Shown here piece after piece: positions 10,956 through 61,975 of a stretch of DNA of 64,000 nt (position 1 is its first letter; the number at the start of each line of letters is the position of its first letter). This DNA comes from Clostridia bacterium (GTDB taxonomy: Bacteria; Bacillota; Clostridia; Christensenellales; CAG-1252), in assembly GCA_024685775.1 (NCBI GenBank), contig JAIKVL010000004.1, positions 70,486 to 134,485 of the forward strand. Reading direction: 5' to 3'. The notes under the pieces were generated by a model. The model did not search any database. It saw only the letters and a list, made by a program, of their open reading frames with translations, and had not been told where the DNA came from. The translations under genes were made by a program, and so were the position numbers.

Positions 10956-10974
10956 GATTTAACCGTTTTATCTA

Positions 10975-23961: not shown

Positions 23962-24031
23962 TTTAGTAGACGGTGATTTACCGTATCTCACTTGCGGAGT
24001 TTCCGCAAAATAAAATTTAAGGAGATATCAT

Positions 24032-25204: not shown

Positions 25205-25224
25205 TTTCAAGCAAGGATTTACTG

Positions 25225-25251
25225 TTAGCCGAGGGAATCTCTCTCGGCTAA
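25225..25251 (+). other. Intercistronic stem-loop between gldA and dhaK
   Basis: TTAGCCGAG-ggaatctct-CTCGGCTAA with no T-run. It lies 20 nt before the dhaK ATG. Confidence 0.5.
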
Positions 25252-25270
25252 TATCATAAAGGAGAGAACT

Positions 25271-27123: not shown

Positions 27124-27156
27124 AAAAAAACACCTCGCCGCGGCGAGGTGTTTTTT
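27124..27156 (+). terminator. Rho-independent terminator after dhaK (bidirectional shape)
   Basis: A7-CACCTCGCCgcGGCGAGGTG-T6. Confidence 0.88.
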
Positions 27157-27168
27157 CGTTTCGATGCA

Positions 27169-27197
27169 TTGACTCCATTCTTTCCGTTTGTTATACT
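27169..27197 (+). promoter_or_regulatory. Sigma-A promoter for the orphan gene
   Basis: TTGACT (27169-27174), a 17-nt spacer, then TATACT (27192-27197). It begins 13 nt after the dhaK terminator. Confidence 0.55.
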
Positions 27198-27267
27198 TAA
27201 ATTAAAGATTTGCCTTACGATTACGACAATCGGCACTTTTTATTCTATTCGAGAACTCGGGGGGTTT

Positions 27268-29567: not shown

Positions 29568-29867
29568 TTATGCGGATTTATCCGACTTTTCCTCTTCTTC
29601 GACAGACGCGCTGCTCTTCGCGTGACTTTTCCGTTTCGGGAAAATGTTCTGCACGCCGGAGACCGTCGAATCGATGGTTTGAATGATATTTTTGATATCC
29701 TGTTTGATTCCTTCGAGGGCGTTCAGCCCCTGCGTCAAACTCGTGATCGTAGAAGTGTATTTCTCTTCCCTGCGCTTACTGTCTTGCAACTGATAGACGA
29801 GAAGCGCGAGAAAAAGAAGTGCCCAGACGCCGTTCGACGCCATATAGTCCACCAATTGTTCCCACAT
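29568..29867 (-). CDS. BhlA/UviB-family holin-like protein
   Basis: 99-aa ORF: MWEQLVDYMASNGVWALLFLALLVYQLQDSKRREEKY. It has an N-terminal TM helix, an RE-x-x-Y motif and a coiled tail, matching the BhlA/UviB pattern as I remember it. Confidence 0.65.
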   Translation of the reverse strand: MWEQLVDYMASNGVWALLFLALLVYQLQDSKRREEKYTSTITSLTQGLNALEGIKQDIKNIIQTIDSTVSGVQNIFPKRKSHAKSSASVEEEEKSDKSA

Positions 29868-29868
29868 A

Positions 29869-30786
29869 TCAACCTCCTATTTCTTTGATATATTTCGGGT
29901 AATAGAACCCGAGAAACGAGCGAAGCTCGTCTTCGTTTTGCCTGACGAAACGATCCCGCTGACTCTTCGGCAATCGCCTGGTCTCCTCGACGGCGAAATT
30001 CAGGCGTTTTTCGTAATTCGTCCTTTTATCTCCCGTGTAATCGCGGAATTCTTTTTCGTATTCCGCGTTCTCCTTTTCGAGATTTTCGACGTATTCCCGT
30101 TCCTTTTCACCGAGTTTGGACTGCTTGCTCTTTTCGAACGACTGCAAGATCTTGTCGCGCTTGGCGGTAAGCTTTTGCAGTTTATCTTCCAAGGCGAGCG
30201 CGTAATCGATCTCGAAAGACGCGAGCGCCGAGCGATAGGATCTTTGCGTTTCCTCGATCCTTCCGTCCAGATTCCGCACCTCGCTTTCGAGTTTTGCGTC
30301 CAATCGCGCCCGGTCGTACGCATGGTCGTCCGCAAGCTGTTCTTTTCGAAGATCGAAAACGGTCGAATGCGTCATTCCGTTCTTCGAAAGGGCTTCGAAC
30401 GCCCGCCTTTCTTTATCCGAGTGCAATCGATCGATGCTTCGGGTCTTATCCGAATAATCGTCGTACGCCGACTTCTTTCGCTCGATCAGAGAATCCAGCT
30501 CTTTCGCGGTCTTCGTTTCGAGTTTGTTCTTTCTCTCGGCAAACGAATCGGCGATGGAATCTTTCGCCTTCTCCATCAATTCCTCGTCCGTCTCGGCGTT
30601 CGGCGCGGAAACGGCTCCGTTCGCGTACTCCTCCGCCTTGATCTTGACGCCTTCTTCGTACTCGTTTCGGATCTTGCTCAGCCCGACCAGGATCGGGCGG
30701 GTAGGATCGGAATCGATGAGAGGCCCGACGCCCGAGATCTCTCTCTTCGGAAGCGACCTCGGGGGATCCAAATCGAATAGTTTCAT
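29869..30786 (-). CDS. Phage-module protein, coiled-coil rich (needle or internal-protein candidate)
   Basis: 305-aa ORF preceded by AGGAGG. It is highly charged with heptad-like repeats. No family recognised. Confidence 0.55.
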   Translation of the reverse strand: MKLFDLDPPRSLPKREISGVGPLIDSDPTRPILVGLSKIRNEYEEGVKIKAEEYANGAVSAPNAETDEELMEKAKDSIADSFAERKNKLETKTAKELDSLIERKKSAYDDYSDKTRSIDRLHSDKERRAFEALSKNGMTHSTVFDLRKEQLADDHAYDRARLDAKLESEVRNLDGRIEETQRSYRSALASFEIDYALALEDKLQKLTAKRDKILQSFEKSKQSKLGEKEREYVENLEKENAEYEKEFRDYTGDKRTNYEKRLNFAVEETRRLPKSQRDRFVRQNEDELRSFLGFYYPKYIKEIGG

Positions 30787-30797
30787 ACTTTCCTCCT

Positions 30798-31910
30798 TTA
30801 CGACGTATAACTGACGTCGTTTTCCGATATGGAAAAACCCGCGAACGCGCCGGAGACGAAAGCGTCCGCATACGAAACGACCGTTTCCGTGCCCGCCGAA
30901 TTCCGACGAACGAGAACGTTCGAATCTTTTTTGTAGTAGAAAAAGGGATATCGCATATCCACTTCCACGTTACACGACGGCGCGAAGGTTTTATTTCGGG
31001 TGATCGTCAAAAGATCATACGGAACGAACGCGTTGCCGCAGACGACGGAATACAAACCGCCCTGCCAAAACTGCATCGCCTTCCAAAGCCCGTCCCCGTT
31101 CGAATACAAAAGGAGCGAGCCGCGCCCCGCGCTTTTTACTTCTTTCACCCCCGAAATGACGTTCGCGCAGAGCGCGGGCGTTCCGTCGAAGGGAAAGGCG
31201 TAAAACCGAAGATCCCCGCTTTCGTCCGCGACGGCGGCGATGAAATCGAAATCGGCGGACAATCCCAGCCCGTCGATCAACGCGCAGGACGTCAGTCCGT
31301 TTACGGGGATGGTCTCGATGTGATTCCCCGTGATGACCTTGACTTCACTGTCCGACGTCGAAGAAAGGACGACGAGATCGGAAGCGTACGCGCCGACGGA
31401 TTTATTATAGTAAAACGCCGCGTCGACGTGCTCCGCGTTCATATCCGACACCGTCGTCTGGTTATTCGAACGTTCGTACTTTTCGATCTTTCGTTTTCCC
31501 AAGCGGACGAATGCGATCGCGCGCGTCGGAAGATAGGCGGATCCGATATCGTTCAGATAACGACCGTAACGGCGGATCGCGCCGCCCGAAACCGTAACGG
31601 ACGCGCCTTTATGGTTTCCGTCCGAGACGACGTCGAAGATATGCTCTCCCTTCTCCAAAACGCAGGTCAGGTGAAAGGCGGGCGACCTTTTTTCCGAGAC
31701 GGGGACTCCGTCGATATAAGGCGTGTAAGCGCCCGTCAGATCGAAAAAGGTCATTTCGAATTCGACTTCGCATTTCGCGTCCGAATAAAAGCGGACGCCG
31801 CCGACTCGCTTTGCGGAAGGCAACGAGGTCCGGACGGTCTTGCGTCTTTCGCGATTCGCCATCAATTCTTCCGTATTAAAAAACGTTTCTTTCCGATAAT
31901 CCATTTTCAT
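30798..31910 (-). CDS. Phage-module structural protein, beta-rich (tail or receptor-binding candidate)
   Basis: 370-aa ORF with an ATGA overlap onto the upstream gene. No family recognised. Confidence 0.5.
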   Translation of the reverse strand: MKMDYRKETFFNTEELMANRERRKTVRTSLPSAKRVGGVRFYSDAKCEVEFEMTFFDLTGAYTPYIDGVPVSEKRSPAFHLTCVLEKGEHIFDVVSDGNHKGASVTVSGGAIRRYGRYLNDIGSAYLPTRAIAFVRLGKRKIEKYERSNNQTTVSDMNAEHVDAAFYYNKSVGAYASDLVVLSSTSDSEVKVITGNHIETIPVNGLTSCALIDGLGLSADFDFIAAVADESGDLRFYAFPFDGTPALCANVISGVKEVKSAGRGSLLLYSNGDGLWKAMQFWQGGLYSVVCGNAFVPYDLLTITRNKTFAPSCNVEVDMRYPFFYYKKDSNVLVRRNSAGTETVVSYADAFVSGAFAGFSISENDVSYTS

Positions 31911-33343
31911 TCTCCGAAAAAGTCGACGACCATATCCGCTTCCGTCACCCGAACGCTTTCTGCGGAGGAAGCGATCGTGATCGACAATTTGTCGAAGGGT
32001 CGTTTGACTTTGATCTTATTCAGTCCCGTATGGACGGGGTATAAGAAGGAGACGCCGTCGAGCTCGACCGAGATCAAGGCCTCCCCTTCCGCGCGAGCGC
32101 GCATTTCCCGAAGCAGTTTTTTGCCCCGATTTGCGCCGAGCGTCGTCACGGGCGAACGCCACACTTTATAGGTTGCCGTCGAATTCACGCTGCCGGATCT
32201 GTCGATCAGTCCGAGGAAATTCACGGGATAGTTCGCCTCTGCGATAACGCCGCCGATCGCTTCGTTATTCACGCCGATCATACAGGTGATCGTCAAATCG
32301 TGCGCGATCTCGATTTTTCCGTTCCATACGTCATAGATCAAAAGGCTGTTCGGAGCGTTTCGGATCGCGCTGTCCATATCGAGCGAGCAGGCGAGATAAT
32401 ACTTGCCGTTATGAAACGCGCCGTGCGCTTCGGGCTGATTCGCCGAAAACAGTCCTTCGAGTTCCTGCAAAGTTTTCCCGACCGCCAAACCGTCGAAGAC
32501 GTAGACGCCGTCCGACGCGCTGAACATAATCCTGTCGCCGCAAACGGTGATCGTGTCTTTATGGATCAATCCGACCGAAAGAAAGAGTTTTTTGACGACG
32601 AATTGCGTTTGATCGTTATATGCGGTGATCCTCGCGATCCCGTGCTCGAAAAAGACGTACAGGTAGCCGCCGAAACTCAGGACTTTTATCACTTGCCCCA
32701 TCTCGCTCGAAAACGAGATCGCGCCGCCCTCTTTCAAAGAAACGTTCCAATTCGACGGATTGAAATCGTCGCTGAATCGGAGCGTGAAAGGATCGCTTCC
32801 GAAGCAAGCGAACACGCGGTCGCTATGCGAACACATCGTCGTGATCGGCTCGTTCATTCCGAGATTCTGCGCCGTCATTCCGCGCAAAAAGAAGAGTCCT
32901 TGCGTCGAAGAGAAAAGAAGCCCTTCTCTCTCGTCCAACAAATACGGGATCGCGCATAAGACCTCTCCGTAAGCGTCGAGTTCGGAAAACATCACGAACG
33001 CATTCAAGCGAAGATCGTACAGCATTCCGTCGTCCGCATAGGCGATCAAGCGATCGGTCCGATATTGCGCGGCGTGCATCGTGTAGGAAAACAGCCGCAG
33101 GAAGCGGACTCCGTCGGGCTTACGGATATGCCACGTTCTGCCGTCGATCTTTTCGGCGGCGAGCGATAACCCCGTTCCCGTCTCCAAAACTCCTTTTTCG
33201 AAAGCGAAGTTATAACTCTTCGGAGAGTACGAAAAAGGGAGTTCCTCTTCGGCGACGCGCGTATCGACGCCTTTGAACGAGGAGAGCTTAAAGCGTTTTC
33301 GGGCGGGAGAAGACAGCGTCGAGTTGATAAAGCGTCGGATCAT
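31907..33343 (-). CDS. Phage-module protein, putative tail hub or nozzle
   Basis: About 478 aa from the Met at 33343 (ATGA overlap with the upstream stop; GGGAG 6 nt upstream). It shows repeated beta-propeller-like segments (DGMLYDL, DRVFACFG, GYLYVFFEHG, DGVYVFDG). Its size and position parallel P22 gp10. Confidence 0.5.
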   Translation of the reverse strand: MIRRFINSTLSSPARKRFKLSSFKGVDTRVAEEELPFSYSPKSYNFAFEKGVLETGTGLSLAAEKIDGRTWHIRKPDGVRFLRLFSYTMHAAQYRTDRLIAYADDGMLYDLRLNAFVMFSELDAYGEVLCAIPYLLDEREGLLFSSTQGLFFLRGMTAQNLGMNEPITTMCSHSDRVFACFGSDPFTLRFSDDFNPSNWNVSLKEGGAISFSSEMGQVIKVLSFGGYLYVFFEHGIARITAYNDQTQFVVKKLFLSVGLIHKDTITVCGDRIMFSASDGVYVFDGLAVGKTLQELEGLFSANQPEAHGAFHNGKYYLACSLDMDSAIRNAPNSLLIYDVWNGKIEIAHDLTITCMIGVNNEAIGGVIAEANYPVNFLGLIDRSGSVNSTATYKVWRSPVTTLGANRGKKLLREMRARAEGEALISVELDGVSFLYPVHTGLNKIKVKRPFDKLSITIASSAESVRVTEADMVVDFFGE

Positions 33344-33876
33344 AACCATCTCCCGAACGGCAACGTAATTTCCCTACGCGAAGAAAGAACGTTCGCCAAC
33401 CCTTCTTTGTAACGTTTTTCGAAAAGCGTCGCTTCTTCGAAAAGCATGGATTCGAGCGCGTACTCCGCCGCGACTCCGCTTGCGAAAAGATCCGGGGAGA
33501 CGCGCGGCGGCATTTCGATCGTCCCGCCGAGCGCGGGATAGGAATTCGGCGTGTAACAATATCGCAGGGAGTACGATCCGTCTTCGGCGAACAAGCTTCC
33601 CCCGCGAACTTTACACTTTGCCTTCCCGCCGCCCGAACGAACGAGTTTTACGACGTCGAAAAACCGTTTCGTAAGAGCGGACAGCTCGAACGACCCGTTC
33701 GAAACCGTGATCGATTCCTCTTCTTCGAGGGGCGCGTACTCGGTGATCAAGCGCATATACGCCACGCCGAGCGCGTTTACGAGGCGCGCCGTTCTCTCGT
33801 CCATCGGGCTGCCTTCCGCCGTTAGGTTTTCGCCCAGCAGCGTCGCCGCTTTATTCAATATTTCATTGACTTGCAT
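33340..33876 (-). CDS. Phage-module protein, putative head-to-tail adaptor
   Basis: About 178 aa from MQVNEILNKAATLLG, preceded by AGGAGG. It sits after the capsid gene and before the hub candidate. Confidence 0.45.
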   Translation of the reverse strand: MQVNEILNKAATLLGENLTAEGSPMDERTARLVNALGVAYMRLITEYAPLEEEESITVSNGSFELSALTKRFFDVVKLVRSGGGKAKCKVRGGSLFAEDGSYSLRYCYTPNSYPALGGTIEMPPRVSPDLFASGVAAEYALESMLFEEATLFEKRYKEGLANVLSSRREITLPFGRWL

Positions 33877-33884
33877 AATTCCTC

Positions 33885-34232
33885 CTATCCCCGCGTTTTC
33901 CACGCGGCGTTCATAAATGCTTCCGCGGTCTCGCCCGCCTTTTCGCAGATCTCGCGCTCTTCTTCAAGCTTCGCTTTCCGCTCCCGTTCTTCGAGTTCTT
34001 CCAAGAATCGTTTTATGCGGCGCACATGCGTTTCGCGAAGTTTCGTCACGAGGCGAGCGTCGAGCGCGTCGTTCCAAGTTACGACGATCTCGTCTTCTTT
34101 TCCGTTCAGTCGGACTTCGAAACGGGATCGCTCCAAGTTGTAAAACAAAAGATACCGCTCGTCCACCTCGCGGATCCGATCCGACACGTCGAACACGTCG
34201 CTTCGGATCGGGATCAATCGTTCTTTCCGCAT
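33885..34232 (-). CDS. Phage-module small protein, unknown function
   Basis: 115-aa ORF preceded by GGGAGG. It has a charged helical C-terminus. Confidence 0.5.
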   Translation of the reverse strand: MRKERLIPIRSDVFDVSDRIREVDERYLLFYNLERSRFEVRLNGKEDEIVVTWNDALDARLVTKLRETHVRRIKRFLEELEERERKAKLEEEREICEKAGETAEAFMNAAWKTRG

Positions 34233-34249
34233 ATGCGCCGCCTCCCGCG

Positions 34250-35434
34250 TTATGCCGAAGCCGCGGTAATGCCCGTGATCTTACCCTGACCGCCCGGCTT
34301 GTCGCAGATCATATCCGCATACTTGACGAGGGTCGCGGTAAAGGTCGCGGTTCCCGGCTTTTGCGTAAGGACCTTGCCCTCTTCGCCTTCGAGCCATCTC
34401 CAATCGCAGAGCTGATGGATCTTGAAGTCTTTGCTGCTCAAAAGATACATCGTCCCGTTATCCACGAAGCGTTCCGCGATGACGGGGATTCCGTTATAGG
34501 AGATCGCCTTGAAGCCGCCGTCGAGATTCATATAGTCGATATTCGTGCGGCTCATCGCAAGATAATCGAGGTAGAAACGTCTGACGTCGTAAGACGTGCT
34601 GATGAAATCCACGTCGGACGCGGAGACTTCCTCCAACTTGTCGATCGCTTCTTGGATCATTCCCGAATGGATCGCGCCGGCGTTGGCTCGGATATAAGGA
34701 TTCAGGAACTTGTAGGTCGCGCGGTTGAGCCCGTAAACGAGACCGCTCATATTGAAAAGAGATTCCAATCCGGTCAGCTCGGAGTCCTTGCTGTTTTGAA
34801 GGGTCGCGAAATAGTTCGCGCCGATGAGCTCCGAAGGCGCGGTTCCGTCGATCTTGACGGTGTTTTCGTTATGATCCACCGCCAAAATGCGCCTTTGCGA
34901 GACGATCGGGGTGTTTTGCCCGTCGGCGTAAACGTCGATCAACATTCCTTCGAGGAAATTTCTGACGTTGCTGAACTTGATCAGGTTTCTGTCGCTATTT
35001 CCGGGATTCGCGACGGTGACGCCGAGTTTTCCGGATCCGTTGCCGTACAGCATACGGCTGAAATGGAACTTGCTCGCTTTGAGAAGCCCTTCCATCTCGC
35101 TGTTCAACAGATTGACGAACGCGCCCGCGTTGTTTTCGCTGGCGCGGAGCGCTTTATCCGAGATATCGATCGTTCCGTACAGGTTTTTGAGCGTGGTCGT
35201 AAAGTTCACGTACAAATTGCCGGATGCCGCGGGGAGATCGCCCGTTTCGCTTCCCGCGCCTACGCCGCCGTTTACGCCGTACGGCACGAGACGGACGATG
35301 TTTTTACCCCAAACGTTTGCGGTGGATTGCTCGATTTTTCCGAGAAAAGCGTTCGTTTTGGTGTTGAGTTGGTTGGTGATTACTCCGAGATAAAGCGTCT
35401 TCAACGCTTTATCGGCAGTCGATAAAGAAATCAT
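34250..35434 (-). CDS. Major capsid protein (HK97-fold type by context)
   Basis: 394-aa ORF preceded by AGGAGG and directly after the scaffold gene. The sequence style is typical of Firmicutes prophage capsid proteins (NLYGTIDISDKALRAS..., C-terminal LVKYADMICDKPGGQ). Confidence 0.7.
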   Translation of the reverse strand: MISLSTADKALKTLYLGVITNQLNTKTNAFLGKIEQSTANVWGKNIVRLVPYGVNGGVGAGSETGDLPAASGNLYVNFTTTLKNLYGTIDISDKALRASENNAGAFVNLLNSEMEGLLKASKFHFSRMLYGNGSGKLGVTVANPGNSDRNLIKFSNVRNFLEGMLIDVYADGQNTPIVSQRRILAVDHNENTVKIDGTAPSELIGANYFATLQNSKDSELTGLESLFNMSGLVYGLNRATYKFLNPYIRANAGAIHSGMIQEAIDKLEEVSASDVDFISTSYDVRRFYLDYLAMSRTNIDYMNLDGGFKAISYNGIPVIAERFVDNGTMYLLSSKDFKIHQLCDWRWLEGEEGKVLTQKPGTATFTATLVKYADMICDKPGGQGKITGITAASA

Positions 35435-35435
35435 A

Positions 35436-36077
35436 TTACATCCTCCTTTCCATTATCATTTTTTCCGTCATGGCTCCCGCCTCTTCGAAGGTTTTCGCTC
35501 GATTCGGCGGTAAAACGGAAGCGGCGCCGCCATGCGTGATCAAATCGGGAACGCCGCTGAGGGGAGAGAGTTCGGAAAGATACTCTTTGACGAATCTATC
35601 GCGAATCTTTTCGTTTTTATAGACGTACTTTTCCAAAAACTCTCCGTCTTGCATTATGCTTTCGGGATCTTTGTAGTTTTTCGAAACGGCTTTCCCGAGC
35701 GCGATTTCGAGACAACGCTCGTTTCCCGCGAGTTCGGGATCGGATTTCAAGATCGAACTGATCTCGGTCGCGTACTCTCTCGCGATCGGATATTCTTCGA
35801 CGAAGGACGCAACTTTATCATCCCAGTTTTCCTTTTCGTACAGAGGGGTGGATCTTTCGCCTCCCTTTTCGGCGGGGGAAGATGCGCTTCTCTCCTCCAA
35901 CTCTTTAATCAGCTGACATTTCTTCGTGAATTCCGATTCGAGATTTCGATACGCTTTCCACAGTTCCTCGCCGTTTGCGAATTTTCCGACGGAGACGGGT
36001 TTTTCGTTATCCGAAACGCGTTCGTTTTGATCGTCGTTTTCGGGCAAAGCCGCCGTTTGTTCCATTTCTTCAAGCAT
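35436..36077 (-). CDS. Scaffolding protein
   Basis: 213-aa acidic, helical ORF with the KFANGEELWKAYRNLESEFTKKCQ motif seen in phage scaffold proteins. It lies between the portal and capsid genes. Confidence 0.65.
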   Translation of the reverse strand: MLEEMEQTAALPENDDQNERVSDNEKPVSVGKFANGEELWKAYRNLESEFTKKCQLIKELEERSASSPAEKGGERSTPLYEKENWDDKVASFVEEYPIAREYATEISSILKSDPELAGNERCLEIALGKAVSKNYKDPESIMQDGEFLEKYVYKNEKIRDRFVKEYLSELSPLSGVPDLITHGGAASVLPPNRAKTFEEAGAMTEKMIMERRM

Positions 36078-36100
36078 AATTTACCTCCTTATATTTGCGC

Positions 36101-37966
36101 TTACGCGCCTGCTTCCACGCTCTTGATGAGCGCTTGTCTGCGTTTATGCATTTTGATATGATCGAGAAGGCGTTTCTTCGCAGCCTCGTCGTAGGGATAT
36201 TCTTTTCCGATGATCGCGCGGGTATGTTCCGCAATATGGAGCGCGTCGTCATCCACTTCCTCGCATTCGATTTCGCCTTTGAGGACGCGCTCGTTCTCTT
36301 CTTTCGCCCGATTGACGTGAAGATCGTCGAGTTCTCTCGCGCTTTCCCAGTTTCCGAAGCCGAGCATTTCGAGGATCTTTCGTTTGTTCGAAGCGCTGAT
36401 TCTTCCGTCGTCGTCCGCCAAAAGACCGAGGTTCAAAAGCTCGATCACGCGATTGCGCCTTGCGGACGCCGTTTCGAGGACGTCGCCGCTGACGTCGTAG
36501 ACGACGTCGTCCGAACTGATATCGTTTCGATCGAAGAGCTTGTACTCGATCTCCCCGTTCTCACCGGCGATCCGTTTCATCCGCTGTTTGACCGCGAATT
36601 GTTTATAAAGCCGCAGGACTTGCTTCGCGACTTCTTTGATCGCGCCGCGGATCTCGTTCGCCGTAACTTTGAGTCTCGAATCGTCCTGCTCCATCAAAAG
36701 CGAGATCGCTTTCGCGCTGGTATTCGTGGACGGCGCTTCGGAGTACTTCATCAAGGCGCTGACGCCGCTGATGATCGTAAACTCTTCGAGGAGTCTCTCC
36801 TCTTCGCGGACGAGTTCGGCGGGGACGGAACCGATCTCCAACATTTGCGGCATCCTTCCGCCCTGCCTGACGATAATGACTTTCCCCGGCGAAAGCCCGT
36901 CTTCTTCGAGGTTCTCGACGTCCACGCTTCCGTCCTCGACCGCGAGCACGCCCATCGTCATTCGGTTCAGATATTCGTGCTTACGGTTTTTGACGGCGTT
37001 GAACGCGCGTTGGATCGGGATGATCCTTTCGACGATCGACGCGCCGAAAAAGTTCCCCGGATTCATGACGGAGGTTTGCTTCGCGAAAGGATATCCTCTG
37101 AGCGAGCCTTCCTTATTGATATAGGGAAGCGGTCCGTCGAAGACGATTTTATTCCCCGCGCAAATGACGAGCCTGCCTTGGGGATACGCCGTCGTCGGCA
37201 GTTCGTAACGCTCGATCACCATCGCGTGATTTTCTAGAGTTTCCGCTCCCATCGCGCGGACGAATCCGCTGTAACCGAGCCCGCCGATCGTGCTTCCGCC
37301 CGAGACCACGAACCCGCTGACGCTTTCGGCGGGGACCTCCACGCCCCAAATATCCTCGATCTCCTCGACCGAATACGCTTTCGCGTGGATCAGGCTGCGG
37401 CAGTCGTCGACGTGCGCGTTCGTCACGCTGTCGGGATAGATCTCGAAAGGCGGGACGACTTCGATCTCGACGTCGCCGTCAAAGAGTTCTTCCTTCCCGT
37501 TTTTCCCGATCTTTCTGCCCTTATGCTTATTCCAAGTCACCTTGTAAAGCGCGGTTCCCGTAACTTCGCTCCACATATTCGCTTCGTAAATGAGCTGCTG
37601 TAAATTCAACTCGTTGAAGACGGAATTCAGGATCTTTCCGGAAAAAGCCGCCGCGGCTTTATCCGATTCGTCGGCGGTCAGCGGGCGCACGGACATGCCG
37701 AGTTTAATGGCGCTGAGTTTGGACGTTCGCGTTTCGAGGATGGTCGCGGTATGGTTATAAACTTCGCGCTGCTGCCAAAAGTACTGCTTTCCGTAGTCTT
37801 CGATATCCCCCGTTTGCCCGATCTCGCAGTATTGATTCCCCATGACGAAATTCAAATTCAATCGCCATTGCATTTCAAGGTTTTTCCTCGCTTCGCGACG
37901 CGCCTCGAAATCCTTTCTTATCTCCGCGACGAGGTCTTCCTGCGTTTCGAACTCATCTTTTTTCAT
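36101..37966 (-). CDS. Portal protein
   Basis: 621-aa ORF whose position between the terminase and scaffold genes, and whose size, fit a portal. Confidence 0.7.
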   Translation of the reverse strand: MKKDEFETQEDLVAEIRKDFEARREARKNLEMQWRLNLNFVMGNQYCEIGQTGDIEDYGKQYFWQQREVYNHTATILETRTSKLSAIKLGMSVRPLTADESDKAAAAFSGKILNSVFNELNLQQLIYEANMWSEVTGTALYKVTWNKHKGRKIGKNGKEELFDGDVEIEVVPPFEIYPDSVTNAHVDDCRSLIHAKAYSVEEIEDIWGVEVPAESVSGFVVSGGSTIGGLGYSGFVRAMGAETLENHAMVIERYELPTTAYPQGRLVICAGNKIVFDGPLPYINKEGSLRGYPFAKQTSVMNPGNFFGASIVERIIPIQRAFNAVKNRKHEYLNRMTMGVLAVEDGSVDVENLEEDGLSPGKVIIVRQGGRMPQMLEIGSVPAELVREEERLLEEFTIISGVSALMKYSEAPSTNTSAKAISLLMEQDDSRLKVTANEIRGAIKEVAKQVLRLYKQFAVKQRMKRIAGENGEIEYKLFDRNDISSDDVVYDVSGDVLETASARRNRVIELLNLGLLADDDGRISASNKRKILEMLGFGNWESARELDDLHVNRAKEENERVLKGEIECEEVDDDALHIAEHTRAIIGKEYPYDEAAKKRLLDHIKMHKRRQALIKSVEAGA

Positions 37967-38204
37967 TCTGTTCCCTCCTTTTTTCCGCTTTCTTGATTAG
38001 GCTGTCCGGGCTTTTCGGGACGATCTCCCTTCCGAACAATTCGTACATCTTTTCCATACACGCGCGGCAAAGATACAAGCCGCCCGCTTCCCTTTTCCAA
38101 GGCACGCGCGGCCGAGAGAGATCGGGCGCCACGGCGAACGCGGCGAGATTCTTACAAAACCCGACGTCGCACTTTGCTTTGACTTTCAGTTTTATCAGTT
38201 CCAT
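37953..38204 (-). CDS. Small zinc-ribbon protein
   Basis: 83-aa ORF with CDVGFC ... CRAC cysteine pairs and GGAGGA 7 nt upstream. It overlaps the terS-like gene by 53 nt and the portal gene by 14 nt. Confidence 0.5.
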   Translation of the reverse strand: MELIKLKVKAKCDVGFCKNLAAFAVAPDLSRPRVPWKREAGGLYLCRACMEKMYELFGREIVPKSPDSLIKKAEKRREQNEKR

Positions 38205-38460
38205 TTTCCGTTTCCTCCAAGAGTTTTAATAATCGCTTCTTTTCTTCCGCGAGTTCTTCGTCCGTCATTTTTTCCAAAGCCCCTTCCTCCGAGACGATCT
38301 CCAAATAGGCTTTCAAGGCGGAGATGTCCGGCGGATAATGCTTGCTCGTTACTTTTTGTTTGATGACGTCGCCTTCCGCGGAATACTCCGTCGTCTTTTC
38401 TTTTGCGGTGTAGCCGATCGCCTTTTTGTAGAGAGAGTTTACGAGCCTTTCATCGATCAT
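38152..38460 (-). CDS. Terminase small-subunit-like protein (C-terminal-motif type, no HTH seen)
   Basis: 102-aa ORF. KKAIGYTAKEKTTEYSAEGDVIKQKVTSKHYPPDISALKAYLE resembles the A-x-GY...E...K.TKKH.PPD..A...WL segment of Firmicutes phage small terminases. Confidence 0.45.
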   Translation of the reverse strand: MIDERLVNSLYKKAIGYTAKEKTTEYSAEGDVIKQKVTSKHYPPDISALKAYLEIVSEEGALEKMTDEELAEEKKRLLKLLEETENGTDKTESQSKVRRRVL

Positions 38461-38473
38461 TGTTTCCTCCTTC

Positions 38474-39910
38474 TCAATAGTTTTTCCCGCGCCGACCGAG
38501 CAGTTTGTTCTTAAATCTCGCCTGCGGCGTCAGTTCTTCTTTTTTCGGAGCGCAAGGGCGCGGCTTGCTCATCAGATAATATCGGAGTTCGTCCATCGCG
38601 TGATCGTCCGCCTTTACGGGAGCGTCACCGTTTCCCCAATAATAGCCCTTGATCTCTCGGATCATATGGACGCAATTCCGAAAGATGACGATGCGCGGCG
38701 GTCGCTCTTTGAACCAACTTTTGACGCGCGCGATCCCCGACCAAAGATCCTTGTCGACCGACGTGTTGCAGATGACGCCTTTTTCATAGAAAAGATCGGC
38801 GACCGACCGCAGGGAAGCGAGCGTCTTTTGATTCGCGGCGCTGTCGATAATGCAGCGAAGTCTTCCCTTTTCATCCCGATGCCAGCCGAGTTCGTCCGCG
38901 ATCTCGTGAATGCGTTTCGCGTGGTGATCGATATCCTTTCCGCTCTCGTAATGCTCCGCGACGACGTAGACGTTTCCGTCGTAATCGACCGCGTAAAAAT
39001 GGCAGGACAGCGGATTATGAAGTCCGGGGTCGATCGAAATCGTATCGTACCACTCCCGCGGGATCTCGAACGGATCGACGACGTGGATGCTTTCGTCGAA
39101 CTCGGGATAGACCAATCCCCCTTCGTCGCCGAATTTTCCGTATCGCCTACTTTGGACGCTTTCCTCGTCGAACGCGCCGGTCAAAAGCTCGATCTCCGAC
39201 GGATCAAGATAAGGATTGTCCGCCCATTCCATCGTGATCGACCAGATCTCCGAATTGTTCTTTCGGTTCATAAAGATCTCGTCGTAGACCCACGTCCTGC
39301 CTTTCAAAGGCGTCATCGTTCCCCAGATCTCGCCCTTTCGATCCATTACGCGCATCAGACATTCTTCGTAAACGTCGCGCGGCGGTTCTTCGTCGAACCA
39401 GACGAAATCGAGCGACGCGCCCTGAAAGCGTTCTCTGCCTTGATCCGCGCTTTTGAATCCGATGCGGGAGACGCCGCCGAAGACGTTACGGATCGTTATA
39501 TAATCGATGACGCCGCCTTCGGGCGCGCTTTTTCTGCCCGATTGCATCGTGACGTCCTCGATCCATTCGGGTCGAAGATAGGATAAGATCTTACTTTGCG
39601 ACACCTCTCTTTGGACTTCGTACGTCGGCGAGACGACCCAACCGCAGACGTCTTTCCTGTTTTGCCGAAAGGGGTGGATCCCTCTCGCCCACCAAACGGC
39701 TTCCACCGCGCCGCATTCCGTTTTTCCGCTGCGATTCCCGCCGAAGACCCAGCGATTGCGTTTCGGGCATTTATGGAAGATCATCTGCTTTTCGTGGACT
39801 TTTTCTTTGTTGTATTTTCCGAGCTTATCGTGTTTTTCCCGAAAGGTTTGCAGTCGCTCGATTTCGGCGATCTTCCGTATGATCTCTTCTTGTCCGATCT
39901 TTTTTTTCAT
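38474..39910 (-). CDS. Terminase large subunit
   Basis: 478-aa ORF with the Walker A GGNRSGKT, the Walker B LDFVWFDEEP, nuclease-domain acidic residues (ISIDPG, IIDSAAN) and DDHAMDELRYYL. Confidence 0.85.
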   Translation of the reverse strand: MKKKIGQEEIIRKIAEIERLQTFREKHDKLGKYNKEKVHEKQMIFHKCPKRNRWVFGGNRSGKTECGAVEAVWWARGIHPFRQNRKDVCGWVVSPTYEVQREVSQSKILSYLRPEWIEDVTMQSGRKSAPEGGVIDYITIRNVFGGVSRIGFKSADQGRERFQGASLDFVWFDEEPPRDVYEECLMRVMDRKGEIWGTMTPLKGRTWVYDEIFMNRKNNSEIWSITMEWADNPYLDPSEIELLTGAFDEESVQSRRYGKFGDEGGLVYPEFDESIHVVDPFEIPREWYDTISIDPGLHNPLSCHFYAVDYDGNVYVVAEHYESGKDIDHHAKRIHEIADELGWHRDEKGRLRCIIDSAANQKTLASLRSVADLFYEKGVICNTSVDKDLWSGIARVKSWFKERPPRIVIFRNCVHMIREIKGYYWGNGDAPVKADDHAMDELRYYLMSKPRPCAPKKEELTPQARFKNKLLGRRGKNY

Positions 39911-39974
39911 TTCCCGACACCTTCATTTGCGTTCCGCTCTTCCCATTTTTCGAAAAATGATATATAATAGCGGT

Positions 39975-40757
39975 ATGAAACGCATTTTGCCCGTTTTTCT
40001 TCTCCTTGCGGTGATCGCCTGCTTTACCCTTGCCGCTCCCGCTTCCGCTTCCGCGGAAACCTCTTTTTATTTGAAAGTCGAGCGCGACGGAATCTCTCTT
40101 TATGAAAACACCGCGATCCAAGCCGCGATGTTTACTCTGCCGAAAACCTACTACGTAAAGATCCTTCGCCTCTCCTACGCTCCGACCTATCATTTGATCG
40201 AGTATAACGGAGTCAAAGGCTTGATCAAAATTTCCGATTTTTCGGATACGCCGGAAGAAAACGTCCCGAATCCTTATTACACGTCGACTTCCGTCACCGC
40301 GCATATAGAGACGGTTTTATATTCTTCCCCCTCTTTTTCCTCGCGCACCGAGATCGCCGCGAGCGGGCTTTCTTTGACCTATCTCGGGAAAGTGAACGGA
40401 GAAAAAGGGACGTACGACACGCCCGTCTGGTTCGCCGTCTTGTATGCGAACGAAGTCTATTATTTGCATTGTTCGCTGACGAATAATTTATCTCTGCTCG
40501 AAAGTTCTTTCGCGCCCGTTCATCCAAACAGCGTCGTTCAGCCCGATCCTTCGAACCCCGCAAGCGGGAAAGAAGCCTCATCCGAGCCGACGAAAGATTC
40601 TTTCGACGTCGTTCGACTGCTTCTGATCATCGGAATGATCGTTCCCCTTTTAGTCATCGTCTTTCTTTTATTCAAACCCCGTCGCCGCCCTTCCGCTCCG
40701 CAAAGGAGCCGCCGCTACGACCGCGAGGACGATTACGACGATTATTACGACGATTGA
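39975..40757 (+). CDS. Secreted, membrane-anchored protein carried opposite to the phage-like operon
   Basis: About 260 aa. It has a signal peptide MKRILPVFLLLAVIACFTLAAPASASA|ET, two SH3-like beta segments, a Ser/Pro linker, a TM helix (LLLIIGMIVPLLVIVFLLF) and the tail RRRPSAPQRSRRYDREDDYDDYYDD. The 39756 track start is antisense to terL, so I reject it. Confidence 0.7.
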   Translation: MKRILPVFLLLAVIACFTLAAPASASAETSFYLKVERDGISLYENTAIQAAMFTLPKTYYVKILRLSYAPTYHLIEYNGVKGLIKISDFSDTPEENVPNPYYTSTSVTAHIETVLYSSPSFSSRTEIAASGLSLTYLGKVNGEKGTYDTPVWFAVLYANEVYYLHCSLTNNLSLLESSFAPVHPNSVVQPDPSNPASGKEASSEPTKDSFDVVRLLLIIGMIVPLLVIVFLLFKPRRRPSAPQRSRRYDREDDYDDYYDD

Positions 40758-40781
40758 TCTTGTAAAAATTTCCTCCTCGTC

Positions 40782-41378
40782 TTAAACGCATTGTTCCGTT
40801 CGCGAGAATCCGCTTTCCGCCGTTTGCTGGAAGACGATCACGCGCGTTTGATACCGTTCGGAATAAGCATCGAACGCGGCGTTCTTCATTTTTTCGCGCA
40901 TCTCTCGCGCCTCGTCGTCCTCTTTAATGACCCGATTCAGCGAAACGGAGAACAAAGGTTCGTTACCGAATTCCCGAAGAATCCTCTTTTGATCGAACCC
41001 GAATCGATCGAGCGCGCAAGCGAATTCTTCGAGCGCCCGATCGAACCTTCGATACAGCGTTCGAAGCGAGATCCCGAGTTTTTTCATCAGATCCGATCTT
41101 GCCAGTGTGAATTCGTATCTCTCGCGAAGCAAGGCGGCGTTTCCGGTTTTGATTCCGGAGAGTCCCCTCTCGATCACGTATTTCATATTTACCAAATTTC
41201 TTTTTCTTTCGTTATTCTTAATAAGGCGTTCGTAAAGTCTCATCTGATCGCTCGGATAAATTGCATAGAACCCATCGAGAGCGCATTTCTCCGCGCTCCT
41301 TTCCAGCGCTTCGCAAACGTCATCGATATGCGCGTAACACGAAACGAGCGCCTTTGCTACCAACAATCTGTCTTCCAT
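40782..41378 (-). CDS. Putative transcription activator with a sigma-70 region-4-like HTH (phage late-regulator analogue)
   Basis: About 198 aa from MEDRLLVAK, with AGGAGG 6 nt upstream. LLRERYEFTLARSDLMKKLGISLRTLYRRFDRALEEF resembles region 4.2 of sigma factors and of ArpU/RinA/DUF1492-type regulators. Confidence 0.5.
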   Translation of the reverse strand: MEDRLLVAKALVSCYAHIDDVCEALERSAEKCALDGFYAIYPSDQMRLYERLIKNNERKRNLVNMKYVIERGLSGIKTGNAALLRERYEFTLARSDLMKKLGISLRTLYRRFDRALEEFACALDRFGFDQKRILREFGNEPLFSVSLNRVIKEDDEAREMREKMKNAAFDAYSERYQTRVIVFQQTAESGFSRTEQCV

Positions 41379-41413
41379 TTTTATCCTCCTTCTCAAAATC
41401 GCCCGTTGTAATG

Positions 41414-41427
41414 CGAACAAATGTTCA
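41414..41427. promoter_or_regulatory. LexA (Cheo/DinR) box candidate
   Basis: CGAACAAATGTTCA compared with the Gram-positive consensus CGAACRNRYGTTYC. Both GAAC/GTTC arms are perfect with a 4-nt spacer. It sits at about +1 to +14 of the promoter below. Confidence 0.6.
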
Positions 41428-41434
41428 CATCATC

Positions 41435-41462
41435 AATATATCACGTTTCCCTCAAAAGTCAA
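41435..41462 (-). promoter_or_regulatory. Sigma-A promoter with extended -10 driving the regulator
   Basis: Minus strand TTGACT (41462-41457), a 16-nt spacer, then TGaTATATT (-10 at 41440-41435). Confidence 0.55.
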
Positions 41463-41541
41463 TGCGGACGTGTCACTATTTTCGCATAAAAACAAAAATT
41501 GTAAAGAACGTATTAAATCTTTCGTATGTTTGGATATATTT

Positions 41542-41655
41542 TTGAACAAAAGTCAATTTTTGGCGATTTTTAAGCCTTTTTCGCCCATATTTTAATCATA
41601 ATTCATTTTTGTTCAAAATTGCAAACTTCGTGCCATAAATTTTCCGTTCAAAATT
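41542..41655. repeat. GTTCAAAATT motif set in an AT-rich spacer
   Basis: GTTCAAAATT occurs at 41611-41620 and 41646-41655 (direct repeat, 35 nt apart). An inverted partner, TTGAACAAAA, lies at 41542-41551 against TTTTGTTCAA at 41607-41616. Confidence 0.5.
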
Positions 41656-48011: not shown

Positions 48012-48395
48012 TTATTTGATCGCGTTGACGATAAGCGTAATAAGAGGTTTGAGCGCGGCGGCGAGCGCGACGCCGAGGATTGTCAGAATGATCTTCCAGA
48101 CGATGCTGGAACGGCGGGCGCGAAGCCTTTGCTCCTCGCTGCGCTGAAACGCGAATCCCTTTTTCAGAAGGGTGACGCAATAATAAAAGTCGCCTTTTTT
48201 ATCCGATTCGACGAGATCGATATACTCGTCGTATACCAAAGCGCGCATCGTGGGTTCGAGGTCTTCCGCCTTGAAATCCAAAGAATACGGGATACCGATC
48301 ATGATATCCACCGGACGGATCAAGCACATACCCTTGTTCTTCGTCGTTTTCTTGTAAATCACGCGCATCAAAGCGCTCTCTTTCTTGTTCAGCAT
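48012..48395 (-). CDS. Tail-anchored winged-helix-like protein (paralogue A)
   Basis: 127-aa ORF with an N-terminal wHTH-like region (ALMRVIYKK...[28 protein letters not shown]), a basic linker and a C-terminal TM helix. Its stop is 5 nt from the uvrB start. Confidence 0.55.
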
Positions 48396-49117
48396 AGTTT
48401 CTTAAAAATCAAGATCATAAAGATCAGGTTTACGATGACAGCGCCGAGCGCGGATCCGAAAAGCGCGGCGAAAAACACCTTTTTCGGACTGATCGAAGTT
48501 TTTTTCTTTTCCTCTTCCGACGGCGCGGGAGCTTCGGGAGTCGCGTTGATCAAAGAACGCGTCGTTCTGGCTTTTTCGCGGCTCTCCGCAAGCGCGATGC
48601 GATCTTCGAGCTCCGCGATCAGATCCTGCTGTTTGCGGCTCTCCTCTTTCGCGCTTTCGAGGGCGGCTTTCTTCTTTTCTTTGTCCTTGCCGTCGCCCGC
48701 CTCGTCAAAAGACGCCTGCGCCTTACGGACTTTTTCTTCGCTTTCTTTTTGCAGTCGCTCTTTCTTTTCTTCGAGCGCGATACGCTCCTGCCGATCCTCT
48801 TCCGCGGCTTGAAGCTCTTTTTTATAGGAAAGAATCTCGGGCTCTTCGGCTACGATCTGCGCAAGACGCTCGCGCGACTGCTTGATCAAAGCGCGACCTT
48901 TCGTTCGCATCGCGACGCAATACTCTTCGTTATCCGCGTATTTGAGATCGATGAGCCCGTCCGCCACGAGGACTTCGAGGATCTCCGTGAGTTCATCGGG
49001 CTGAAAAGTATGATAAGAAATACGGGAAGTGATCTCTTCCGCTTCCAGAATGCGATACCCTTCGCCTTCGCAAAGGTCGAAAAGCGCGTCCATAACTTTG
49101 ATCGAAATATCGTTCAT
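48389..49117 (-). CDS. Tail-anchored winged-helix-like protein with long coiled coil (paralogue B)
   Basis: 242-aa ORF. Its N-terminal pattern matches paralogue A (KVMDALFDL...LVADGLIDLKYADNEEYCVAMRTKG). A roughly 110-aa charged coiled coil and a C-terminal TM helix follow. Its stop overlaps the start of paralogue A by 7 nt. Confidence 0.55.
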   Translation of the reverse strand: MNDISIKVMDALFDLCEGEGYRILEAEEITSRISYHTFQPDELTEILEVLVADGLIDLKYADNEEYCVAMRTKGRALIKQSRERLAQIVAEEPEILSYKKELQAAEEDRQERIALEEKKERLQKESEEKVRKAQASFDEAGDGKDKEKKKAALESAKEESRKQQDLIAELEDRIALAESREKARTTRSLINATPEAPAPSEEEKKKTSISPKKVFFAALFGSALGAVIVNLIFMILIFKKLC

Positions 49118-61955: not shown

Positions 61956-61975
61956 ACCGCACCTCGCACCTTTTG

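Follow-up and report, generated by a model that had tools for sequence, protein, structure and literature searches.

A 14-bp palindrome at the predicted transcription start of a small regulator gene is probably an SOS operator, at which host LexA would control the promoter (P1) of a sigma-70 region-4-type transcription regulator. The palindrome was found in a 64,000-nucleotide stretch of chromosomal DNA from a Clostridia bacterium (the window), where the regulator gene lies upstream of a compact block of terminase, capsid and holin genes. From the match of the palindrome to known LexA sites and from its conservation, its assignment as a LexA operator is very probable. The gene block carries no repressor gene of its own and occupies one and the same site on the chromosome of many uncultured Clostridia from rumen and gut.

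Architecture of the probable operator and its promoter

The regulatory region and the two genes next to it contain the following features.

41414..41427, minus strand: putative Cheo-type (LexA) operator, TGAACATTTGTTCG (plus strand, CGAACAAATGTTCA), predicted to span +1 to +14 of P1
41435..41462, minus strand: promoter P1, with TTGACT (-35), a 16-nt spacer and TGaTATATT (extended -10)
41595..41624, minus strand, in the same orientation as P1: promoter-like site P2, TTGCAA-18-TATGAT, without a LexA box and with a conserved palindrome in the spacer
40782..41378, minus strand: regulator, 198 aa, sigma-70 region-4-type transcription factor (phrog_36/248, transcription regulator/activator)
39975..40757, plus strand: antisense gene, 260 aa, with a signal peptide, an extracellular part and a C-terminal membrane anchor

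Read on the minus strand, the full array of TTGACT-16 nt-TGaTATATT-7 nt-TGAACATTTGTTCG occupies 41462..41414, upstream of the 198-aa regulator gene (40782-41378), which starts with an ATG at 41378 and has a ribosome binding site, AAGGAGG, at ~41385-41391. The -35 hexamer of P1 (TTGACT) is located at 41462-41457 and its -10 hexamer (TATATT) at 41440-41435, and the final three bases of the spacer are TGa. In a promoter scan, P1 is the best sigma-70-like site of the region, with a score of 10/12 and the TG element. Related loci keep the extended -10 of P1; some of them have a different -35. Seven nucleotides (GATGATG) separate the -10 from TGAACATTTGTTCG (41427-41414), which matches the GAAC-N4-GTTC arms at 8/8 positions and the consensus CGAACRNRYGTTYC at 13/14. 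Based on a start 6-8 nt past the -10, the box is predicted from the sequence to cover about +1 to +14. This minus-strand reading agrees with the original prediction, which described TTGACT, a 16-nt spacer and TGaTATATT upstream of the regulator, perfect GAAC-N4-GTTC arms just downstream of that promoter, and an operator at +1 to +14 of a strong promoter; the last of these placements follows, as a prediction, from the 7-nt distance to the extended -10.

P2, located ~165 nt upstream of P1, is likewise conserved and is free of the box. In most relatives, it reads TTGAAA-TTTTGTACAAAAATGg-TATAAT. A TTTTGTACAAAA palindrome is found inside P2, and a TGTCACA-like motif precedes the -35 hexamers of both P1 and P2. 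A further GAAC-N4-GTTC sequence at 40950, within the coding sequence of the regulator, encodes a conserved NEPLF motif and was rejected as a chance match because the DNA of this motif is not kept in other loci.

Conservation of the box and its match to LexA sites

The clade sample consisted of 24 related loci whose upstream DNA could be read, all from uncultured rumen and gut Clostridia. The box is present at the same position in 23 of these 24 loci; it is missing from one of the 12 species-representative genomes and from none of the 12 metagenome loci that have upstream sequence. Among the box-bearing loci (21 distinct sequences), the site reads TGTGAACA-WW-TGTTCG, and only the two central bases vary. 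In 190 pairwise comparisons, the 14 non-central positions are 100% identical. The pairwise values nearby are lower, at 60% downstream, 47% between the -35 and the -10, and 38.5% for four-fold degenerate sites in the adjacent gene. Of the 13 perfect GAAC-N4-GTTC sequences in the ~155 kb of the 12 genome loci, 11 correspond to the operator site at the regulator. The sole clade locus without a box, L008, is a natural knockout: the genes from terL to DUF7934 are gone and the -10 and the box are gone too, so that site and structural genes have been lost together. Conservation is also high over the ~40 bp that surround the box, a stretch that takes in the -10 and part of the leader, so the binding protein cannot be named from conservation alone.

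The sequence of the site points to LexA. The clade consensus, TGTGAACAWATGTTCGTA, agrees with the Firmicutes lexA-promoter footprint, TACGAACATATGTTCGTA, at 16 of 18 positions, and the core dyad AACn4GTT was present in 39 of 40 lexA promoters in the study that gave this footprint (PMC2248561). In addition, the clade site has GAACAAATGTT in common with the lexA and recA operators of C. difficile, both of which bind LexA by SPR (PMC4234289).

Three of four deep lineages also have a Cheo-type box (CGAACATATGTTCG, GAACAAATGTTC or CGAACATATGTTTG) ahead of their regulator gene; the chance of a box per upstream region is 0.9-1.9%. In L030, the arrangement TTGCCG-16-TGgTATACT-7 nt-CGAACATATGTTCG has the geometry seen in the window, the site matches the phylum-wide lexA consensus over its first 16 bases, and a box-free promoter lies downstream. 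The box of L033 (GAACAAATGTTC) is located ~20 nt upstream of the predicted -35 and not at +1; in both L033 and L034, the box is apparently upstream of the predicted promoter, hence outside its transcript. The L035 box is CGAACATATGTTTG. No box is present upstream of the regulator in L036, and the Acutalibacteraceae version of the element has no adjacent regulator. The regulator of L030, the only one measured among the deep lineages, is 25% identical to that of the window. Since the box has been kept while the regulator diverged to this extent, the protein that binds it must have changed much less than the regulator, as would be the case for LexA or a similar host factor. This comparative evidence strongly supports the proposal, made before any related locus had been compared, that a Gram-positive LexA (Cheo) box would block the promoter of the regulator.

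The wider SOS context was also surveyed. In B. subtilis and C. difficile, uvrBA belongs to the core SOS targets. The caution attached to the original prediction, that the uvrBA promoter region does not carry the motif, holds in the window and in the three loci that reach that far: in the window, L002, L005 and L008, both the operon promoter (49184-49150) and the region preceding uvrB are free of the box. This promoter drives two small ORFs and then uvrB, the real start of which is the ATG at 48005. A tblastn search with B. subtilis LexA and RecA gave no lexA or recA in the window or the 12 loci, a protein search with B. subtilis LexA gave only Bacillus proteins among the matches listed, and a literature search on Christensenella LexA or SOS returned nothing useful.

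Three other explanations of the palindrome were weighed against a LexA operator. It is rather unlikely that the palindrome is the operator of another dimeric repressor, such as a LexA paralogue, an Xre-type protein or another host factor, for which the signal may not be DNA damage. The uvrBA promoter without the motif in every locus that reaches it, the lack of lexA in the window and loci, and the hints of further regulators given by the TGTCACA-like motif and the TTTTGTACAAAA palindrome would all be in keeping with such a protein; they are set against the 16/18 match to the phylum-wide lexA autoregulatory consensus (in L030, a match over the first 16 bases), a core common to sites that bind C. 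difficile LexA, and the retention of the site while proteins of the element diverged to 25% identity, for which the binding protein has to be highly conserved. Furthermore, no candidate repressor gene is found in or beside the block in any lineage. An improbable explanation is that the conserved sequence acts without a repressor, either as core promoter and initial transcribed region or as a 5' RNA stem-loop that stabilises the regulator mRNA. Here, an 8-bp hairpin (-8.1 kcal/mol) is possible within the first 20 nt of the putative transcript, but 40 of 200 shuffles fold as well (z = -0.84), the invariant arms provide no covariation, and there is no credible Rfam match. Although the -10 and the leader directly past the box are conserved, as this role would allow, the conserved core comprises exactly the LexA half-sites and not the flanks that would lengthen a stem, and the boxes of L033 and L034 would not be transcribed from their predicted promoters. 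Finally, the motif counts in the window are at chance level: GAAC-N4-GTTC occurs 3 times versus 2.15 expected, a count reached by 32 of 100 shuffles, and, with one mismatch allowed, the full consensus gives 5 matches versus 5.17 expected. No argument was thus built on counts; what lifts the site above chance is solely where it lies and how well it is kept in related loci. A chance palindrome inherited through shared ancestry would agree with these counts and with the common descent of the clade loci, yet it is very unlikely given a box that is 100% identical versus 38% identity at neighbouring neutral sites, that is found again, independently, in three of the four deep lineages (1-2% chance each), and that was lost with the structural genes in L008. 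A LexA operator is the reading carried forward below.

The capsid gene block and the proposed switch

The structural genes downstream of the regulator and the antisense gene form a 10.3-kb operon that runs from terL to the holin gene.

38474..39910, minus strand: large terminase (terL), first gene of the structural operon (PF03237, 58.5 bits; phrog_2), ~80% identical across species
38152..38460, minus strand: 102-aa coiled-coil protein, possible small terminase (phrog_309 terminase small subunit, E 1.6e-7)
36101..37966, minus strand: portal protein of P22/SU10 type (PF16510, PF23899; phrog_156)
35436..36077, minus strand: 213-aa protein in the scaffold position between the portal and capsid genes, conserved, with no family match
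34250..35434, minus strand: major capsid protein (phrog_14242, E 4.5e-51)
29869..34232, minus strand: five more conserved structural genes (115, 187, 480, 370 and 305 aa), the last being DUF7934
29568..29867, minus strand: BhlA/UviB-family holin, last gene of the block (PF10960, 51.5 bits; phrog_2429)

In the annotation of the block (29568-41378) and its flanks, no integrase, replication, repressor or tail-module gene is present, and the same gene content is seen in five other regulator-bearing lineages that were sampled. The arrangement of yetF, the regulator and terL is identical in 12 of 12 species representatives, and in longer loci the synteny reaches uvrB-uvrA-DUF4363 upstream and the structural genes downstream. 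Across species, terL is ~80% and the portal protein ~75% identical, versus 87% for uvrA. The nearest phages share less than 30% identity with proteins of the block; the major capsid protein has more than 5,886 relatives in Clostridia and at most 26% identity to any phage record. A search with the capsid gene gave two IMG/VR contigs, and L036, the one long enough to read, is the same element with a short flank. What had been called a phage block is, judged from this sequence evidence, rather a chromosomally fixed and syntenic GTA-like element without integrase, replication or repressor genes; more specifically, it is a domesticated, vertically inherited, podovirus-like element of GTA type.

For the regulator, PF08281 (sigma-70 region 4) is recorded in several relatives, with that of L033 scoring 40.1 bits, above the Pfam cutoff. 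In the window regulator, neither a Pfam match nor a region 2 was detected, and no significant match to TcdR/UviA-type models was obtained. Its AF2 model has a pLDDT of 85, and the best fold matches are to ECF sigma region 4 at an E value of about 0.2, which is not significant; a sequence search against PDB chains gave weak matches to sigma region 4 only. No relatives of the regulator were found in viral contigs.

The regulator gene is not contiguous with terL. The antisense gene at 39975-40757 lies in between, convergent with the regulator gene and divergent from terL. It is conserved at 44-78% identity in 12 of 12 genome loci, an opposite-strand gene occupies its position in the deep lineages, and its product has no Pfam, PHROG or NCBIfam match. 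Two minus-strand ORFs in this region (40294-40581 and 39825-40304) were considered as small phage genes and rejected, as the conserved plus-strand gene covers their position; their translations are Arg-rich shadows of that gene. A regulator-dependent promoter was not identified before terL, where the conserved sequence comprises an RBS and an ATTATA element, the latter being best read as the putative -10 of the antisense gene. A conserved terminator is also not present before terL.

In the mechanism that we infer from this arrangement, a LexA dimer bound to +1 to +14 would block initiation at P1 in undamaged cells, and it could also stop RNA polymerase coming from P2. Since the block is without a repressor of its own, host LexA would serve in this role. 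Upon DNA damage, activation of RecA would lead to self-cleavage of LexA and P1 would fire. The regulator would then turn on the terL-to-holin operon. Either it would activate a promoter before terL, or P1 transcripts would read through the antisense gene into terL, as no terminator is seen. The expected outcome is the production of presumably podovirus-like particles, followed by lysis of the cell. In short, the conserved operator suggests that these bacteria make virus-like particles in response to DNA damage.

Less likely than not, but a serious rival, is the reading that the LexA operator is real but the block is not a GTA. It could instead be an inert prophage remnant, or a device for killing or lysis that is induced by SOS and resembles PBSX or a bacteriocin. 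The block ends with a holin gene of the BhlA/UviB type, and holins of this family have been linked to the release of bacteriocins, which would suit such a device. On the other side, the terminase, portal, scaffold and capsid genes are intact at 60-90% identity in many species at one chromosomal place, which speaks for selection on DNA packaging rather than for a remnant, and GTA-type packaging has been reported in Christensenellaceae together with the similar FpGTA of Faecalibacterium (PMC12946183).

Returning to the GTA-type reading, we tentatively suggest, with somewhat less than even confidence, that the block represents an old, vertically inherited, podovirus-derived GTA family of the Christensenellales and neighbouring rumen and gut Clostridia that is hard-wired to the SOS response, with the antisense gene as part of the switch. 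If this is true, DNA damage would result in altruistic lysis and the release of particles filled with host DNA, and the operator would provide the first regulatory logic for the newly found FpGTA-type elements. LexA boxes are well known from the control regions of phage or bacteriocin regulators, and the operator is in itself no surprise. Its value lies in its target, a compact capsid/terminase/holin block at one chromosomal site in many uncultured rumen and gut Clostridia, which has a capsid family of thousands of members and resembles a Faecalibacterium GTA-like element without a known regulator. If the operator works, quinolones and metronidazole-type drugs should induce particles, lysis and possibly gene transfer in abundant anaerobes. 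The combination of an extended -10, 7 nt and CGAACATATGTTCG could also be used as a signature for finding the regulators of related elements.

Comparison with known systems

In B. thuringiensis phage GIL01, CTXphi, coliphage 186 (tum), colicins and pyocins, host LexA binds a promoter of the element and takes the place of a phage repressor or supplements it, so that SOS induces the element directly. Unlike this group of autonomous phages, plasmids and toxin genes, the element described here is a non-replicating, syntenic chromosomal block. A complete self-replicating phage genome of the GIL01 type was not found, the block being fixed between housekeeping genes, and no co-repressor such as gp7 is evident.

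The PBSX element of B. subtilis comprises chromosomally fixed, phage-derived particle genes that are induced by DNA damage, with the sigma-like Xpf controlling the late operon; it is ~28 kb, myovirus-like, and has its own Xre repressor. In contrast, the present block is 10-12 kb and podovirus-like (P22/SU10 portal), lacks a repressor gene, and has its LexA-type site directly on the promoter of the regulator. PBSX has been treated as a GTA-like element (PMC12946183).

The analogy to uviA-uviB that accompanied the original prediction is reasonable in view of the regulator family with sigma-70 region 4, the BhlA/UviB-family holin, and the two promoters and putative LexA site reported for uviA (PMC4459074). 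As in uviA-uviB-bcn of C. perfringens pIP404 / pBCNF5603, a small regulator, here a putative member of the sigma-70 family, heads the system, the regulatory region contains a putative LexA site and two promoters upstream of the regulator gene (PMC4459074), and a BhlA/UviB-type small membrane protein is encoded (here PF10960, 29568-29867). Induction of uviA-uviB-bcn by UV or mitomycin C would be a further likeness, that of the block itself being a prediction. The systems differ in output, which is a capsid/portal/terminase operon here and a bacteriocin there, and in location, as uviA-uviB-bcn is plasmid-borne and the present element is inherited vertically on the chromosome. The regulator family also shows region 4 (PF08281) only, with no detectable region 2.

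In its gene content and size, the block is similar to the published description of FpGTA of Faecalibacterium prausnitzii, a 10.5-kb operon of about ten genes that include a possible TerS, TerL, portal, scaffold, capsid and conserved unknowns (PMC12946183). FpGTA is podovirus-like, is present in 12 of 12 Faecalibacterium genomes examined, and is without phage replication genes (PMC12946183). A holin gene ends the present block, whereas the lysis and tail-fibre genes of FpGTA are in a second locus; no regulator or SOS link has been described for FpGTA, whereas the block has a regulator with a putative LexA site. In Rhodobacter capsulatus, production of RcGTA is connected with LexA and the SOS system (PMC6363796), LexA being needed for production indirectly, via repression of cckA. 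Here, in contrast, the operator is on the promoter of the element's own regulator, and LexA would be a direct repressor.

Promoter and candidate operator of the regulator gene

Upstream of the regulator gene, the minus strand from 41462 to 41414 opens with the hexamer TTGACT. After 16 nt of spacer, of which TGa are the last three bases, come TATATT, GATGATG and TGAACATTTGTTCG; the 198-aa ORF (40782-41378) has its ATG at 41378, behind AAGGAGG, a strong RBS. This reading confirms the originally predicted promoter sequence, TTGACT-16 nt-TGaTATATT, and a consensus scan of the region ranks the site (P1) first among promoter-like matches, at 10/12 plus the TG of an extended −10. In agreement with the same prediction, perfect GAAC-N4-GTTC arms lie directly downstream, and the box occupies approximately +1 to +14 relative to the predicted start. 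On the plus strand, the box reads CGAACAAATGTTCA, with an RNRY spacer and 13 of 14 positions matching CGAACRNRYGTTYC. Counting gave no significant enrichment of the motif in the window: perfect GAAC-N4-GTTC occurs three times versus 2.15 expected (one copy being inside the regulator coding sequence), the consensus with one mismatch five times versus 5.17, and the arms with one mismatch 48 times versus 47.7. Since these counts are at chance level, a functional claim must draw on other evidence.

Recurrence of the box and its probable binder

In 11 of 12 species-representative genome loci, a perfect GAAC-N4-GTTC is found 48-53 nt 5' of the regulator ATG, right behind a conserved TGTTATATT, and one also lies upstream of the regulator in all 12 metagenome loci having upstream sequence. 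Among the 21 distinct sequences, which follow TGTGAACA-WW-TGTTCG, only the two central spacer bases of the box differ; variation is slight in the −10 and far greater in the −35, the leader and the 7-nt stretch from −10 to box.

Pairwise identity in and around the regulator promoter
14 non-central box positions: 100%
Extended −10: 86%
Stretch from −10 to box: 74%
Downstream leader: 60%
Spacer between −35 and −10: 47%
Four-fold degenerate sites, first 75 codons of the regulator: 38.5%

Fixed half-sites with free central bases are the pattern expected under binding by LexA or another dimeric helix-turn-helix repressor. The 12 genome loci together span ~155 kb and contain 13 perfect GAAC-N4-GTTC sites, of which 11 are the regulator-upstream box. 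The sole genome locus without it, L008, has lost the regulator's −10 as well.

Loci of deeper lineages were obtained through matches to the capsid protein, whose relatives number >5,886 and include Christensenellales and Acutalibacteraceae MAGs. These loci carry the same module (regulator, opposite-strand gene, terL through DUF7934, with a BhlA holin usually last) in other chromosomal contexts. In the Christensenellales loci L030/L031, the regulator is 25% identical to that of the window and the promoter and box read TTGCCG-16-TGgTATACT-7 nt-CGAACATATGTTCG: the geometry is window-like, the box ideal and the surrounding sequence otherwise unrelated. L033, which adjoins gyrBA and whose regulator has PF08281 at 40 bits, carries TATGAACAAATGTTCAAA ~20 nt upstream of the predicted −35; in its sister L034, the arms of the box deviate at one position, and the L035 box is CGAACATATGTTTG. 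The box was not found in L036, an IMG/VR contig with the same element, and the Acutalibacteraceae version of the block (L028/L029, 5519-14849) has neither an adjacent regulator nor a box. In that version, the capsid protein is 466 aa long with a C-terminal Flg_new (PF09479) extension, and a 339-aa opposite-strand gene occupies the antisense-gene position. Capsids of this type occur on many long contigs.

Because a shuffle test places the chance of such a site at 0.9-1.9% per upstream region, the three matches in four lineages are far beyond chance; together with the clade conservation, this recurrence excludes a chance palindrome. Since the regulators diverged strongly while the box did not, the box is most likely bound by a host factor that is itself highly conserved. 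The clade consensus TGTGAACAWATGTTCGTA agrees at 16 of 18 positions with TACGAACATATGTTCGTA, a footprint recovered from Firmicutes lexA promoters whose core dyad AACn4GTT is present in 39 of 40 (PMC2248561), and the L030 box matches the first 16 bases of this footprint exactly. The core is likewise shared with the lexA AGGAACAAATGTTTGC, recA GAGAACAAATGTTTGT and uvrB AGGAACTAATGTTCGA operators of C. difficile, for which SPR demonstrated LexA binding (PMC4234289). The original caution that the uvrBA promoter region does not carry the motif holds in the window and extends to the related loci L002, L005 and L008, and this box-free operon counts against the LexA reading. Neither lexA nor recA lies within the window or the related loci, and only Bacillus proteins were among the matches listed in a database search with LexA; that these organisms have a LexA, and one of this specificity, is presumed from general Firmicutes knowledge. 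A repressor other than LexA could conceivably bind the same box. It is also conceivable that the region acts as RNA, as a hairpin of −8.1 kcal/mol is predicted for the start of the transcript; however, this fold is no better than shuffles, covariation is absent, and the L033/L034 box is apparently outside the predicted transcript. With clade conservation, deep lineages and the match to Firmicutes and C. difficile sites combined, the proposed LexA-operator reading is well supported, and the box is rather likely to be a LexA operator.

Gene content and inheritance of the block

Downstream of the regulator gene, the block contains the following genes.

Minus strand: large terminase (terL), PF03237
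Minus strand: 102-aa coiled-coil protein, weak small-terminase PHROG match
Minus strand: P22/SU10-type portal
Minus strand: scaffold-position protein
Minus strand: major capsid protein, phrog_14242
Minus strand: five conserved structural/unknown proteins, DUF7934 among them
Minus strand: BhlA/UviB-family holin

Gene annotation agrees with the earlier view that the block has no phage repressor; integrase and replication genes are likewise absent from it. The regulator has no Pfam match and matches PHROG transcription regulator/activator families, and its relatives carry PF08281 (sigma-70 region 4). Among fold matches to the AlphaFold model of the regulator (pLDDT 85), ECF sigma region 4 ranks first, without statistical significance. 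The family is small (36 proteins in a large protein database), with no relatives among 2.9 million viral contigs; the window itself belongs to a MAG annotated as "Clostridia bacterium". A scan of one genome per species yielded the 12 genome loci. All are from MAGs, which bear the labels Christensenella sp., Clostridia or Clostridiales and in several cases derive from rumen samples. In all 12, one side consists of a Mur ligase, two small ORFs, uvrB, uvrA, DUF4363 and yetF and the other of regulator, terL, portal, capsid and remainder, some loci being too short to display every gene. Identity across loci is ~80% for terL, ~75% for portal and ~65% for capsid, with ~87% for uvrA and ~82% for yetF; the nearest phages share <30% identity. 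The label "phage block" is thus not borne out in the sense of a prophage: fixed synteny, host-like divergence and the missing phage genes indicate that the block is a domesticated, vertically inherited phage-derived element. L008 is a natural deletion variant (10001-13745), in which terL to DUF7934 are absent, a 49-codon terL stub is joined to the holin, and the regulator and antisense genes are intact. In the viral collection, the capsid gene matches two contigs only, of which L036 (IMGVR_UViG_3300011187_001113; 13 kb, regulator to holin, ~1.8 kb of flank) is the one readable in length; evidently, prediction pipelines can classify the element as viral.

Several neighboring genes are also of note. 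Just past the holin lie genes for a 1,009-aa protein (24017-27046, minus strand) and a 243-aa protein (27148-27879, plus strand), without significant family match; L008 has a counterpart of the former within ~1 kb after the holin. By analogy with FpGTA locus II, these might be further particle parts. The product of a single 2,723-aa ORF (53814-61985, minus strand) carries a signal peptide, is repetitive and rich in Ser, Gly, Ala and Val, and is probably a giant surface protein. The uvrB-uvrA operon (promoter 49184-49150, uvrB start 48005) begins with two small, mutually overlapping minus-strand ORFs (48389-49117 and 48012-48395) in the window and in L002, L005 and L008, the three loci reaching this region. 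Both products appear winged-helix-like by eye in their N-terminal part and end in a membrane anchor; the 242-aa protein also has a coiled coil and no Pfam match.

Possible control of the block and known systems

A second conserved promoter-like site, P2 (41595-41624, minus strand), has no box. Located ~165 nt 5' of P1 and oriented alike, it contains a TTTTGTACAAAA palindrome within the spacer. In most relatives, P2 reads TTGAAA-TTTTGTACAAAAATGg-TATAAT, with a 12-bp spacer palindrome. The window carries TTTTGAACAAAA (41604-41618) and, 67 nt downstream, its reverse complement TTTTGTTCAAAA (41537-41551); repeats of this type give six matches in the window versus 0.43 expected, and a related inverted repeat, TTTTTGTAAAAA...TTTTTTACAAAAA, occurs in L036. 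These repeats may be the operator of a second regulator. A T(G/T)(G/T)CAC(A/G) motif (TGTCACAAAC in many loci) is observed a few bases upstream of both the P1 and P2 −35 elements (41470-41476 and 41629-41635, minus strand), and also ahead of the regulator promoter in L033/L034 (TTGTCATAAAA) and L036 (2055-2064). TTTACA(A/T)TTTT (41496-41505, minus strand), ~35 nt upstream of the P1 −35, hardly varies within the clade alignment and might supply the −35 of another, perhaps regulator-dependent, promoter.

The regulator gene is convergent with the antisense gene (39975-40757, plus strand), which separates it from the terL operon. The antisense gene encodes a 260-aa protein with a predicted signal peptide and C-terminal membrane anchor, without family match and 44-78% identical in 12/12 genome loci; every deeper lineage examined has an opposite-strand gene separating terL from the regulator or from the position where one would be expected. 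Minus-strand ORFs at 40294-40581 and 39825-40304 were rejected as genes, their Arg-rich translations being shadows of the antisense gene. The 63-nt gap between antisense gene and terL contains a conserved ATTATA (TATAAT for the antisense gene) and the terL RBS. Because TATAAT sits 6 nt ahead of its ATG, the antisense gene is probably leaderless in the window clade. As the gap has no recognisable terL promoter or conserved terminator, and no terminator-like site follows the regulator gene, P1 transcripts may read through into terL.

LexA bound at +1 to +14 would repress P1 and could also halt polymerases arriving from P2. Upon DNA damage, LexA self-cleavage would permit regulator synthesis. The structural and lysis operon might then be expressed through activation by the sigma-region-4 protein or by read-through across the antisense gene, which would at once oppose expression of that gene. 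The resulting particles might transfer DNA as a GTA, kill in a PBSX-like manner or do something else. If the box is a LexA operator, it would offer the first handle on the regulation of a GTA-like element that is widespread among uncultured gut and rumen Clostridia and fixed in their chromosomes.

Phage-derived elements with a regulator under LexA control form an already known class, of which the block would be a new member. PBSX is an analogue for SOS-driven phage-derived particles, and GIL01 is one for LexA serving as an element's repressor. In size and gene order, the features compared here, the block resembles FpGTA of Faecalibacterium, a 10.5-kb, ten-gene, podovirus-like gene transfer agent that packages ~8.5-kb host DNA fragments and for which no regulator is given; GTA-type packaging was also observed in Christensenellaceae (PMC12946183). 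RcGTA differs in that LexA acts there only indirectly, via cckA (PMC6363796). The closest analogue of the block's control would be, as originally suggested, uviA-uviB-bcn of C. perfringens, in which a regulator of the sigma family, a putative LexA site alongside two promoters, and a UviB/BhlA protein occur together (PMC4459074, PMC4885068).
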